A stretch of DNA of 14,562 bases from a virus (Duplodnaviria; Heunggongvirae; Uroviricota; Caudoviricetes), in the IMG/VR virus record IMGVR_UViG_2703718773_000013; one strand, 5' to 3'. Below, piece by piece: positions 5,102-9,087 of this stretch. Positions within the stretch are counted from its first letter, which is position 1; the number at the start of each line of letters is the position of its first letter. The notes beneath the pieces were generated by a model. That model was given only the letters and a program-made list of their open reading frames with translations. It was not told the origin of the DNA and made no database searches. A program made the position numbers and the translations under genes.

Positions 5102-5308
5102 CTTCATTTTCACTTTCTTAAATCTAACGACAGACGGCTAACATTTAAGTATTGTGAAATATTATCAAATGTAATCATCATTGATTTACAAAAGATACAT
5201 TTTGCCCCGAAAGGATTCCTGTCAGAAACATCAAAAGATGATGTTCTATACTGAGAACCATGGCAACACGGGCATCTAAAGTGAATATGGTTTGTAATAT
5301 TTTCTACC

Positions 5309-5521
5309 TCAAAGTGCCACTACATGAACAGCCGCGGGGCCTTTAGGTCCGTTCTCAATACCAAATTCGACTTGCTGATTCTCAGTTAACGTTTTGAAAT
5401 CGTTGCTCTGAATAGCTGAGAAATGGACAAACACATCTTTGCTACCATCTTTCGGCGTGATGAAACCAAAACCTTTTTCAGGGTTAAACCATTTCACTAA
5501 ACCAGTCATTTTGTTAGACAT
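5309..5521 (-). CDS. cspI: Cold-shock protein, CspA family (CspI-like), 70 aa
   Basis: [70 protein letters not shown] contains the RNP1-like KGFGFI and RNP2-like VFVHF motifs. Long upstream untranslated region, typical of csp genes. Confidence 0.9.
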
Positions 5522-5889
5522 CATTATTACCTTTTGAAGAAGTGAGCCCTTGGGCAGAATGGTCCGAAAAAAATATCAGAGAGAAAAACCAACAAGGAAA
5601 TCTCAAGAGGTACAAATAATAAAATTATAACAATGACTGCTTCAGATAATTTTGTAACAAACCAGAACACCATTAACGCATGATTAACCAACCATAGCAA
5701 GGATTACTTTTGTAAAGAAAAACACACGAATGAAACAATAGCTTTATTTATTAATAAAACGTGTCATTCTGTCTAATGACCTTTTATCTTACCCTTAAGA
5801 TTTCAAGGATTTTGACTCATGGAAGAGTCCTTTTTATTTAAATTTCACATTCAGCGCTAAAAATAATCCGATTTAATGTTAATCTACAT

Positions 5890-6911
<1,022 letters not shown>

Positions 6912-7016
6912 GGATATTTATCAGGATTTATCGGTTTCTGAACCCTGGATATGTTTATCTGTCCCGGCCTGTTGAATCAGGCGGGGAAAAGGTAAAGACA
7001 ATCAAGAGGATTATTT

Positions 7017-7289
7017 ATGGACAATAACACCATTTCTCTACAGGAGTTGCTCGACTGCATTTCAAAGCTTCGGGATGATGTAAATGCCCTCACTGTTGCA
7101 TTTTCATATTTGGCCTTATCAATTCCCAGAGAACAAATGCAACCAACACTGGCATCGCTCCTGCTTGAATCACGCAACCCCAAATGGTCCCAGGAACAAC
7201 AAAATTCTTTCAAGTGGCTGGCGGCATTACTGGAAGAAAAATATGCTGGTAAAATTACCATTTCGGTGGAGTCTTCAGAGAATCAGTAA
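7017..7289 (+). CDS. Hypothetical 90 aa protein, antisense to the late operon and convergent with the ydfR-like gene
   Basis: ATG at 7017 preceded by a strong SD aagagga with 6-nt spacing. Balanced, helix-like composition. Its 3' end overlaps the ydfR-like gene by 35 bp. No clear sigma70 promoter found upstream. Confidence 0.4.
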   Translation: MDNNTISLQELLDCISKLRDDVNALTVAFSYLALSIPREQMQPTLASLLLESRNPKWSQEQQNSFKWLAALLEEKYAGKITISVESSENQ

Positions 7290-7599
7290 TTCTTCCTGGT
7301 AGCTTTCCTTTGTAGGTTATCCACACATTCTGCGCCTCTAAAATTACGGGGCGCTTTTCCGGCGACTGCTCATCCCCTTCACATAACCCGGCTGCAACTT
7401 CCAGGAAGACCTGTCTGATGCTCCTTCTGGCTGCTGCCTCATAAAACTCCAGCGCGGCACCTTCAACACGGTCCAGCGAGATGTCCAGGTCAAAAATTTC
7501 ACCGTCAAAGCGTTTTTTGTCCCTTAATGCTACAGTTACCGCAACTTTATTCTCAAAATTGCGGATCCCTTTCACAATCAGTTCATAGTTTTGTGTCAT
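7255..7599 (-). CDS. YdfR-like protein (DUF1327-type as recalled), 114 aa, between holin and endolysin
   Basis: ATG at 7599-7597 with SD ggagag 9 nt upstream; begins 5 nt after the holin stop. Protein MTQNYELIVKGIRNFENKVAVTVALRDKKRFDGEIFDLDISLDR... The Qin prophage has ydfR at this position (from memory). Confidence 0.65.
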   Translation of the reverse strand: MTQNYELIVKGIRNFENKVAVTVALRDKKRFDGEIFDLDISLDRVEGAALEFYEAAARRSIRQVFLEVAAGLCEGDEQSPEKRPVILEAQNVWITYKGKLPGRITDSLKTPPKW

Positions 7600-7603
7600 T
7601 GAA

Positions 7604-7819
7604 TTACTCTCCCCGTGCAACCTTACGCTTGTCTTCTTTAATCTTGAAATAAAGGTTTGTCAGGTACGTCAGCAAGCCAAATACCAGACTACCCAGCACA
7701 CCGATTGCAGCCCACTGTGACGGAGTTACTTTATCGAGTAACTGCAATGCCCAGAAACCAGCATTACCAGCCGATGTGCCATAGGCGATACCTGTTGTTA
7801 ACTTATCCATTGATTTCAT
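7604..7819 (-). CDS. S: Class II holin, phage-21 S21 pinholin type with dual-start motif
   Basis: 71 aa [71 protein letters not shown]. The Met1-Lys-Ser-Met4 dual start and two transmembrane segments match S21 as recalled. SD ggtgagg upstream. Confidence 0.9.
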
Positions 7820-8006
7820 ATCCTCACCCCGATGTACACAGATGGTGCAATATGTTTGAAAAGATCGGAGTCTATGGGGTAGTTTTTATAGCAAACGTTG
7901 TTCTCAACGGCGCTAAAAAACAGACACATTAAAAATGTGGGTAATTATTTTAAAAGAAAATCATATATTAAATAATAATACGAGATATGTTTTCATATTT
8001 AGTGTA

Positions 8007-8028
8007 CTGTATACGGCCATTTATACAG
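8007..8028. promoter_or_regulatory. Inverted repeat CTGTATA-N8-TATACAG overlapping the ribosome-binding site of the zinc-ribbon ORF (candidate operator)
   Basis: ctgtata (8007-8013) and tatacag (8022-8028) are perfect reverse complements, and the right arm overlaps the aggaaaag SD of the ORF starting at 8038. Spacing between CTGT and ACAG is 14, so it is not a canonical LexA box. Confidence 0.35.
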
Positions 8029-8037
8029 GAAAAGCCT

Positions 8038-8208
8038 ATGTCAGAACGTAAAGACTCAAAATCACGCCGTAATTATCTCGTTAAATGTTCCTGCCTAAAC
8101 TGCACCCAAGAGTCAGAACACAGTTTTTCAAGAGTACAAAAAGGTGCCCTTTTGATCTGCCCTCATTGCAACAAAGTATTCCAGACAAATCTTAAAGCTG
8201 TAGCTTGA
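8038..8208 (+). CDS. Small zinc-ribbon protein, 56 aa
   Basis: ATG at 8038 with SD aggaaa. Protein MSERKDSKSRRNYLVKCSCLNCTQESEHSFSRVQKGALLICPHCNKVFQTNLKAVA has two Cys pairs (CSCLNC ... CPHC) and a basic N-terminus. The track ORF extends further 5'. Confidence 0.45.
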   Translation: MSERKDSKSRRNYLVKCSCLNCTQESEHSFSRVQKGALLICPHCNKVFQTNLKAVA

Positions 8209-8290: not shown

Positions 8291-8571
8291 AATATTGTGG
8301 TACTTTTTGTGGGAGTCATCCACTTACGCACTTTGTTTTGCTATGCCAGCAGTTAGCTTCTGCTGTAAAACTATTCATGCAGCAAACCTGCACTTCACCA
8401 CAATGGTTAGCATACTTTTCCTGATTAAGTTATTGCCAAATATGCTGGCCATTGTTTCATGTATTGGACCTCCTTACTCTTTATTAAAGAGATCCAATAT
8501 TCACCACTCTGTCTGTATCTCCACTCAGGCATCAGCCTTCTTCGTTATCGTATACAGACAAACTATGAATT

Positions 8572-8787
8572 TTAATCAGTAATTATGACATTTGCTGCTG
8601 CAGGACCTTTAGCACCACTCTCTACAGAGAAGGTAACCTTTTGACCTTCAAATAAGGTTCGATAATTATCATTCTGAATCGCAGAAAAATGCACAAACAC
8701 ATCTTTACTACCATCAACAGGAGAAATAAAGCCAAAACCTTTATCAGCGTTAAACCATTTTACTAAACCAGTCATTTTATTTGACAT
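8572..8787 (-). CDS. cspB: Cold-shock protein, CspA family (CspB-like), 70 aa
   Basis: [67 protein letters not shown]... Divergent from the cspF-like gene, as in Qin (from memory). Confidence 0.9.
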
Positions 8788-9087
8788 TCTACATTCCTTA
8801 ACTTGAGCCTTTCGGCATAAATGGCTTGTATAACAGAAACGACTTCGTACTTAATTGGAGAGACTCAAAGAAGGAATAAGTGAATAACACCTGAAATGAG
8901 AACTGCTTTAGTAAACTACTTCGTATATCGTCTGTTCTTCAAACCGACGCAATCATTAACGCATAGTTGAACATATGAAGCAATGTTTATTTTAGACATC
9001 CAGCCATCTTCAACCCCATCAAAAAACTATAGCTTTCTTCAGGAACGTGTGTATAGTGCGCCAAGTTATCAGTATTAAGGAATTTTT

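Follow-up and report, generated by a model that had tools for sequence, protein, structure and literature searches.

The lysis cassette of a tailed phage (Caudoviricetes; IMG/VR record IMGVR_UViG_2703718773_000013), read here in a 14,562-nucleotide stretch of DNA that we call the window, carries 692 bp of extra DNA (6912-7603) between its phage-21-type holin gene and its signal-arrest-release (SAR) endolysin gene. Two genes occupy this interval: a ydfR-family gene of 114 amino acids (aa) on the late strand, and orf90, a 90-aa gene oriented against the late genes. The interpretation that we favour, and to which we give about an even chance of being correct, is that they form a two-gene accessory module in which ydfR encodes a late RNase E- or RNA-binding protein and orf90 is a moron, neither being essential for lysis. 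The genes and their layout are already known and annotated, and make up a very common accessory module.

A YdfR homologue downstream of the holin

The late-strand gene is a true YdfR/DUF1327 homologue and not a chance open reading frame (ORF). In the profile search that an initial annotation of the window had proposed for the 114-aa protein, it matched Pfam family PF07041 (DUF1327) with 144.9 bits against a cut-off of 25 (E = 8.9e-43), over profile positions 1-92 of 93; it also matches phrog_406 over its full length and is held in RefSeq as WP_000193257.1, 'YdfR family protein'. Residues 1-74 are 82% identical to YdfR of Escherichia coli K-12 (P76160), with divergence from residue 75 on, so that the likeness to ydfR in the Qin prophage, first drawn from position, extends to homology. 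The location is also typical of DUF1327, directly downstream of a class II holin as in K-12, mEp460, PhiR40_1, 2H10 and CFT073.

The conserved N-terminal domain comprises codons 1-76 (7372-7599) and the tail codons 77-114 (7255-7371); a structure model of the protein has three strands and a helix (50-73), with a low-confidence tail (predicted local distance difference test (pLDDT) <50). Relatives share this modular plan, in which either a conserved stretch of 35 residues, with ...SLKTPP at its end, or some other sequence follows an N-terminal domain of ~76 residues, and they end in variable tails or long extensions, giving lengths of 103, 104, 114, 116, 161, 176, 183 and 263 aa. Diversity (pi) in the N-terminal domain is 0.017, compared with 0.087 in the 5' coding DNA of the endolysin gene, which points to selection acting on the protein. 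In one IMG/VR prophage (locus L027, 2950-4200), otherwise a match to the window, ydfR is broken at about codon 54 by an IS3-family-like insertion with transposase ORFs of 72 and 295 aa.

The initial annotation had credited this gene with no described function, but K-12 YdfR is the subject of a 2026 study by Gopel and co-workers in RNA Biology, which reports that it binds the catalytic half of RNase E and co-purifies RNA (PMC13232886). There, a two-hybrid screen recovered YdfR residues 1-72 three times, both this segment and the full-length protein gave signals with RNase E 1-597 in two-hybrid assays, RNase E 1-598 came down with Strep-YdfR on purification, and the YdfR eluate contained large amounts of DNase-resistant nucleic acid (PMC13232886). 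The RNase E-binding segment mapped in the K-12 protein is the part that is conserved in the window protein. Other phage proteins act on RNase E, namely T7 gp0.7, T4 Srd and phiKZ Dip (PMC4980113), and Srd resembles K-12 YdfR in being small and phage-encoded and in binding the enzyme by its N-terminal catalytic half (PMC4980113, PMC13232886). No sequence or fold homology between YdfR and Srd, Dip or gp0.7 was found.

The highest 19-residue Kyte-Doolittle average in YdfR is 0.84, compared with 1.72 in the holin, and in orf90 it is 0.93; neither protein has a hydrophobic segment, and Pfam and PHROG searches returned no holin similarity for either. Membrane-acting antiholins are of the S21-71, lambda S107, T4 RI or P1 LydB type. 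YdfR and orf90 possess no transmembrane or tethered segment and are not N-terminally extended forms of the holin, and both are predicted to be soluble, which argues against a membrane antiholin. Searches with both proteins gave nothing below E 0.3 against the sequences of Protein Data Bank chains, no PADLOC match at E up to 1 and no meaningful NCBIfam match. The idea of a toxin-antitoxin or anti-phage defence pair found no support, given the lack of a PADLOC match and the absence of a growth defect on overproduction of K-12 YdfR (PMC13232886).

Sequence context of the ydfR start

The gene order and the approximately 690 bp of extra DNA given in the initial annotation were reproduced, and its distance of 5 nt from the pinholin stop to the 114-aa gene was right to within one base: the holin stop TAA (7604-7606) and the ydfR ATG (7597-7599) are separated by the 4-nt spacer TTCA (7600-7603). 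The gene indeed has its own Shine-Dalgarno (SD) sequence, GGGGAGAG, in the 3' end of the holin gene. Genes on the late transcript, on the minus strand, follow the order holin, ydfR, a 343-nt stretch, endolysin and Rz-like spanin, and a terminator scan predicted no late-strand terminator between the holin and endolysin genes; co-transcription of ydfR with the lysis genes, as had been proposed, is therefore probable from the sequence.

Comparison with cassettes that lack ydfR suggests where this ribosome-binding site came from. Stx2a/933W-like cassettes such as that of ArgO145 resemble the window in their class II holin, SAR-type lysozyme, 3' end of the S gene and 4-nt spacing, but their endolysin gene comes next after the holin gene and they have neither ydfR nor orf90. 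ArgO145 reads ...acggggagagtaagctgATG(endolysin) where the window reads ...acggggagagtaattcaATG(ydfR), with a shared SD context and a holin/endolysin gap of 4 nt that matches the holin-to-ydfR spacing of the window. Since the endolysin start occupies the same sequence context in adjacent cassettes, ydfR has taken over the endolysin's ribosome-binding site. Adjacency of the two lysis genes, which the initial annotation quoted for phage 21, was confirmed in ArgO145 instead; adjacent cassettes are common in viable Stx phages, and hence neither ydfR nor orf90 is needed for lysis. The Qin prophage of K-12 has a YdfR of the same family, likewise 4 nt downstream of an S21-type holin, and its ydfR stop overlaps the endolysin start; the K-12 protein differs in length (103 versus 114 aa), and the K-12 cassette has no orf90 and no 56-nt endolysin leader of the kind described below.

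An opposite-strand gene in the late region

The 343 nt between ydfR and the endolysin gene (6912-7254, abutting the endolysin ATG at 6911) had been described as non-coding on the late strand. This holds in that they contain no conserved late-strand gene, but it passes over orf90, a conserved gene on the opposite strand that is annotated in RefSeq (WP_001315200.1) and PHROGs (phrog_2411, E = 4.9e-57, residues 1-90 on profile positions 1-90 of 90). This gene converges tail-to-tail with ydfR, and their 3' ends overlap by 35 nt. It is open over 89-90 codons in 23 of 25 unique sequences that are 85-100% identical, and the core of its SD, GAGG, is unchanged across 21 unique sequences.

A late-strand ORF of 94 codons (6977-7261) was weighed as the true gene and rejected as a shadow ORF: stop codons break it in NCTC86, phiSTEC1575-Stx2k and several IMG/VR groups in which orf90 remains intact, and its frame stays open in 19% of synonymous resamplings of orf90. 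Values of dN/dS were 0.17-0.37 for orf90 and 0.09-0.45 for the late-strand ORF; because the two share wobble positions, dN/dS alone does not separate them. Remote relatives of orf90, full length (81-97 aa) and 30-45% identical, emerged from a profile search against 1.84 billion representative proteins, and a second search placed these in Serratia, Sodalis, Citrobacter, Chania, Gibbsiella and Chimaeribacter. The frame that is kept while the shadow ORF breaks and the remote homologues together argue that orf90 is a real protein-coding gene, and its pattern of substitution shows the marks of purifying selection. We assign it, by sequence, to an unnamed family of ~90-aa, predicted helical proteins of Enterobacterales for which there is no Pfam entry; the model of orf90 is a four-helix bundle (pLDDT 70.8) whose structural matches are only generic helical repeats.

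Unlike the prophage-borne orf90, the homologues in Serratia and Chimaeribacter are chromosomal and fixed between dinI and bssS (pyrC-dinI-X-bssS-solA; L101 4001-4282, L107 3501-3785 and L109 3501-3770), with identities in the 30-45% range given above; at L101, the one Serratia locus read for this feature, a terminator-like hairpin follows dinI, ahead of the orf90 homologue. The G+C content of orf90 is slightly low (0.43 versus 0.47-0.51). The orf90 homologue of a Citrobacter freundii prophage (L103 4001-4430) is found upstream of the holin gene and, as in the window, runs against the late genes. Its tail-to-tail partner is a gene of 63 aa similar to the C-terminal extension seen in long YdfR variants; the end of this gene, ITGSLRAPIKL, resembles the YdfR end ITDSLKTPPKW.

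The lambda gene bor is an autonomous moron that lies on the opposite strand and adjoins the lysis genes. Like bor, orf90 is small and self-contained, is oriented against its surroundings in the late region and is present or absent among homologous phages; unlike bor, it has no signal peptide or lipobox, overlaps its neighbour tail-to-tail and has no recognised promoter or terminator.

A 292-bp insert at a variable junction

Orf90 is present in some homologous phages and absent from others, with sharp homology breakpoints. PhiR40_1, whose layout is holin, a 116-aa YdfR, 63 nt and endolysin, is homologous to the window on both sides of a segment (6968-7259) that is 292 bp long here and 19 bp there. 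This segment contributes the orf90 SD and codons 1-81 and changes the C-terminus of YdfR from ...PPESQP to ...PPKW, and the final orf90 codons are antisense to ydfR sequence that is also present in phages without orf90. The order endolysin, orf90, ydfR was kept in all 80 IMG/VR loci with orf90; the holin gene was also detected in 76 of the 80, that is, wherever the contig reached it and the sequence was similar enough for detection.

Spacing between the holin and endolysin genes, the comparison that the initial annotation had suggested, takes several forms across related phages: a 4-nt gap (ArgO145 and most Stx2a phages), ydfR alone (K-12, mEp460 and PhiR40_1), long YdfR fusions of 161-263 aa, and ydfR with orf90 as in the window. 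Some Stx phages (L099 1332-2123 and L100 1339-1824) have genes of 161 aa and 263 aa directly after the holin gene, with a 511-nt unannotated gap between the long gene and the endolysin gene. A further rearrangement is seen in phiSTEC1575-Stx2k (L007 1285-3303), where a block of S21-type holin, ydfR and orf90 leads into a second lysis module, unrelated to the first, which replaces the lysozyme and contains two holin-like genes and an M15 metallopeptidase.

The leader of the endolysin gene

The 56 nt directly upstream of the endolysin start are near-invariant. Their diversity (pi) is 0.010 across 41 unique sequences, compared with 0.087 in the endolysin coding DNA on one side and 0.090 in the non-coding part of the insert on the other, making the leader about nine times less diverse than its flanks. 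On the late strand it reads ACAGAUAAACAUAUCCAGGGUUCAGAAACCGAUAAAUCCUGAUAAAUAUCC-AUG, with three GAUAAA-type repeats and no SD near the AUG. PhiR40_1 shares the leader, and 2H10 shares the 44 nt proximal to the start; neither phage has orf90. In phiSTEC1575-Stx2k, the gene that follows this leader is an unrelated one. Its RNA fold was no better than that of shuffled sequence (z -1.43), and Rfam gave nothing credible in 6800-7900, its only matches elsewhere in the window being two cspA thermoregulators. The leader could be a translation control region, a linker for recombination of modules or a promoter for the opposite strand.

Prevalence in Escherichia coli and its phages

A survey of 5426 complete E. 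coli genomes with DNA queries found holin DNA at 16467 places in 5161 genomes, DNA of the ydfR N-terminal domain at 8488 places in 4340 genomes (80%; up to nine places per genome) and the orf90 region at 1252 places in 1139 genomes (21%), among them CFT073, NCTC86 and E. coli B derivatives. Roughly half of the phage-21-type holin genes in E. coli are thus accompanied by ydfR, going by places, and the cassette that had been described as interrupted is one normal form and not an anomaly of this phage. Among 60 phages, evenly spaced among 469 matching phage records, about half have adjacent holin and endolysin genes (span 738 bp) and about a quarter have ydfR variants between them; orf90 was limited to Chlobot, vB_EcoS-783R2 and phiSTEC1575-Stx2k. 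In a scan of one genome per bacterial species, YdfR relatives were limited to Escherichia and Shigella, apart from two metagenome bins that bear the labels Veillonella and Bacillota; these match at 76-82% identity over residues 1-74, as Escherichia and Shigella loci do, and probably carry E. coli contigs.

The cassette and its neighbours

The 1442 bp from the endolysin gene to the holin gene match, at 100% identity, a prophage in E. coli O55:H7 CB9615 as well as ~20 other RefSeq genomes. CB9615 has these genes annotated as essQ, 'YdfR family protein', 'hypothetical protein' (on the opposite strand), rrrQ and rzpQ, with cspI, cspB, cspF, ynfU, a Q-like antiterminator and terminase as neighbours; this is a Qin-type layout, found in K-12 too. 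A literature search for essQ and rrrQ returned nothing useful.

The holin matches PF04971, 'Bacteriophage P21 holin S' (Pfam, E = 1.1e-33), and phrog_9876/phrog_20 holin (PHROGs), corresponds to essQ in NC_013941.1, and begins MKSM, a dual start at Met1 and Met4. The endolysin matches PF00959 (Pfam, E = 8.3e-25); its N-terminus is hydrophobic and rich in G and A (Kyte-Doolittle 1.67 at residue 9), and its translation shows the spacing E35-x8-D44-x5-T50, both of which fit a SAR endolysin.

Features of the lysis cassette and of the DNA between its holin and endolysin genes (positions in the window)
Feature	Positions	Strand	Size	Remarks
Rz-like i-spanin	5890-6381	-		PF10721, phrog_312
SAR-type endolysin (phage lysozyme)	6378-6911	-	177 aa	downstream boundary of the 692 bp
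Endolysin leader	6912-6967	-	56 nt	near-invariant
Insert segment	6968-7259		292 bp	19 bp in PhiR40_1; breakpoints from pairwise blastn
Shine-Dalgarno AAGAGG	7004-7009	+		7 nt upstream of orf90 ATG
orf90	7017-7289	+	90 aa	in holin/endolysin gap, opposite strand to late genes
ydfR-family gene	7255-7599	-	114 aa	
Shine-Dalgarno GGGGAGAG	7607-7614	-		within holin 3' end; 8 nt upstream of ydfR ATG
Holin, class II, phage 21 S-type	7604-7819	-	71 aa	upstream boundary of the 692 bp

An ORF in another frame inside the Rz gene (5934-6230, minus strand) has a lipobox-like LTSC motif and is unannotated in the RefSeq CB9615 record; its sequence and position make it a likely Rz1-type o-spanin, the equivalent of rzoQ. 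Upstream of the holin gene lies a counterpart of ynfU (7987-8208, plus strand), a small cysteine-rich ORF for a putative zinc-binding protein and another small opposite-strand gene within the late region. On either side of the lysis cassette are the cold-shock genes of the prophage, cspI and cspB, each with a cspA-type thermoregulator RNA leader (Rfam RF01766) on the minus strand; the two leaders are at 5282-5678 (113.8 bits) and 8509-8948 (156.7 bits).

Possible roles of the module

A soluble YdfR, a holin with its own antiholin, cassettes that manage without ydfR and the RNase E binding of the K-12 protein together make a role in RNA metabolism the best supported. The 692 bp would then be a module in a recombination-prone slot, the holin/endolysin boundary in phage-21-type cassettes of Escherichia lambdoid prophages. 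YdfR would be made from the late transcript together with the lysis genes, using the former ribosome-binding context of the endolysin gene, and would act as a small, soluble, cytoplasmic protein whose binding targets late in infection are the catalytic half of RNase E and/or RNA. By homology to the K-12 protein, it would modulate RNA decay or RNA use and not membrane hole formation, a role that we consider less likely. Orf90 would be an independent gene, brought by the 292-bp insert that also remodelled the last ydfR codons, and most probably behaves as a moron, that is, self-contained cargo expressed on its own and possibly in the lysogen.

Several observations weigh against this interpretation. 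Only for the K-12 protein has the interaction with RNase E been measured, largely with overproduced fusions, and the window protein differs in its C-terminal part from residue 75 on. The authors of that study did not rule out a contaminant as the source of RNA binding by YdfR, and its overproduction altered few transcripts and did not slow growth (PMC13232886). That ydfR always comes immediately after the holin gene could equally fit a lysis-related role, and simple consensus scans found no sigma-70 promoter or intrinsic terminator for orf90 above chance.

Such a lysis-related role is one alternative. T4 RIII is a soluble protein that tunes lysis timing via holin T, and YdfR could likewise be a cytoplasmic lysis regulator that binds the pinholin, for example at its basic cytoplasmic C-terminal tail, or the unreleased SAR endolysin. 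The gene starts directly after the holin stop, on an SD that otherwise serves the endolysin; all YdfR-bearing cassettes that were read share this position, 4340 of the 5426 genomes contain ydfR DNA, and the overlap of the K-12 ydfR stop with the endolysin start points the same way, as does the Keio ydfR deletion, which scored in the envelope-leakage screen of Paradis-Bleau, where ydfR is listed in supplementary tables only (PMC3879167). We nevertheless consider a regulator of this kind unlikely, because YdfR has no transmembrane segment and the dual start of the holin already supplies an antiholin, about half of the homologous holin genes lack neighbouring ydfR DNA when places are counted, the endolysin gene follows the holin gene after 4 nt in many viable Stx phages, overexpressed K-12 YdfR caused no growth defect and no holin interaction has been reported. 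The Keio phenotype, moreover, may be a polar effect, or read-through of the kanamycin cassette into the downstream SAR endolysin gene. With regard to the functions suggested in the initial annotation, an antiholin-like factor of the membrane kind is not supported, given the hydropathy maximum of YdfR and the holin's own dual-start antiholin, whereas a lysis-timing modulator is neither supported nor excluded; its third suggestion, cargo on the late transcript, fits ydfR and extends to orf90, albeit on the other strand.

Taken further, the cargo interpretation would have both genes neutral or of benefit to the host, with no role in the lytic cycle and any function exerted in the lysogen, for example under cold or envelope stress; they would be retained as the holin/endolysin junction tolerates insertions and recombines often. 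Consistent with this, the content of the junction is highly variable and YdfR C-termini are modular, an insertion sequence interrupts ydfR in the one IMG/VR prophage noted above, the YdfR family is confined to Escherichia and Shigella, orf90 homologues are ordinary chromosomal genes in Serratia, and Qin lysis genes are stated to be up-regulated in the cold (PMC13232886). However, the N-terminal domain of YdfR is strongly conserved across thousands of prophages, and a strong SD in a late operon means that ydfR is heavily expressed only at the end of the lytic cycle, so that we doubt that the genes are cargo alone. We regard it as very unlikely that the 343-nt stretch works mainly as RNA with orf90 being incidental, the leader setting endolysin translation and/or plus-strand antisense RNA damping leaky holin and ydfR expression in the lysogen. 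The low diversity of the leader, its three GAUAAA repeats and lack of an SD, its retention in phages without orf90, the 35-nt convergent overlap of orf90 and ydfR, and the failure of the scan to predict a plus-strand terminator before the holin gene would all fit such a function, but the frame, start, SD and length of orf90 are kept across 85-100% identical sequences, homologues at the protein level (30-45%) exist in other genera without such an antisense arrangement, and the leader has neither a fold better than shuffled sequence nor an Rfam match. A bolder variant, which we hold to be highly improbable, goes as follows: YdfR would be a late RNA-binding RNase E adaptor on the phage's own lysis transcript, acting for example through the invariant GAUAAA-repeat leader and so linking mRNA decay or translation to the holin:endolysin ratio and lysis timing, and orf90 would be a lysogen-expressed counter-regulator that opposes it as a protein or via antisense RNA.

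Significance

About 80% of the complete E. coli genomes have YdfR genes inside prophage lysis cassettes. The 2026 report that the K-12 protein binds RNase E makes a role for YdfR in the lysis cassette a testable hypothesis. If true, the variant in which YdfR acts as an adaptor on the lysis transcript would amount to a new layer of lysis control, post-transcriptional in nature and shared by most E. coli genomes. For those who annotate genomes or engineer phages, the holin/endolysin boundary offers a natural site for insertions, and DNA inserted there captures the endolysin's ribosome-binding site. Orf90, in turn, illustrates that gaps in late operons can conceal conserved genes, here one from an unnamed family that also has a fixed chromosomal site in Serratia.

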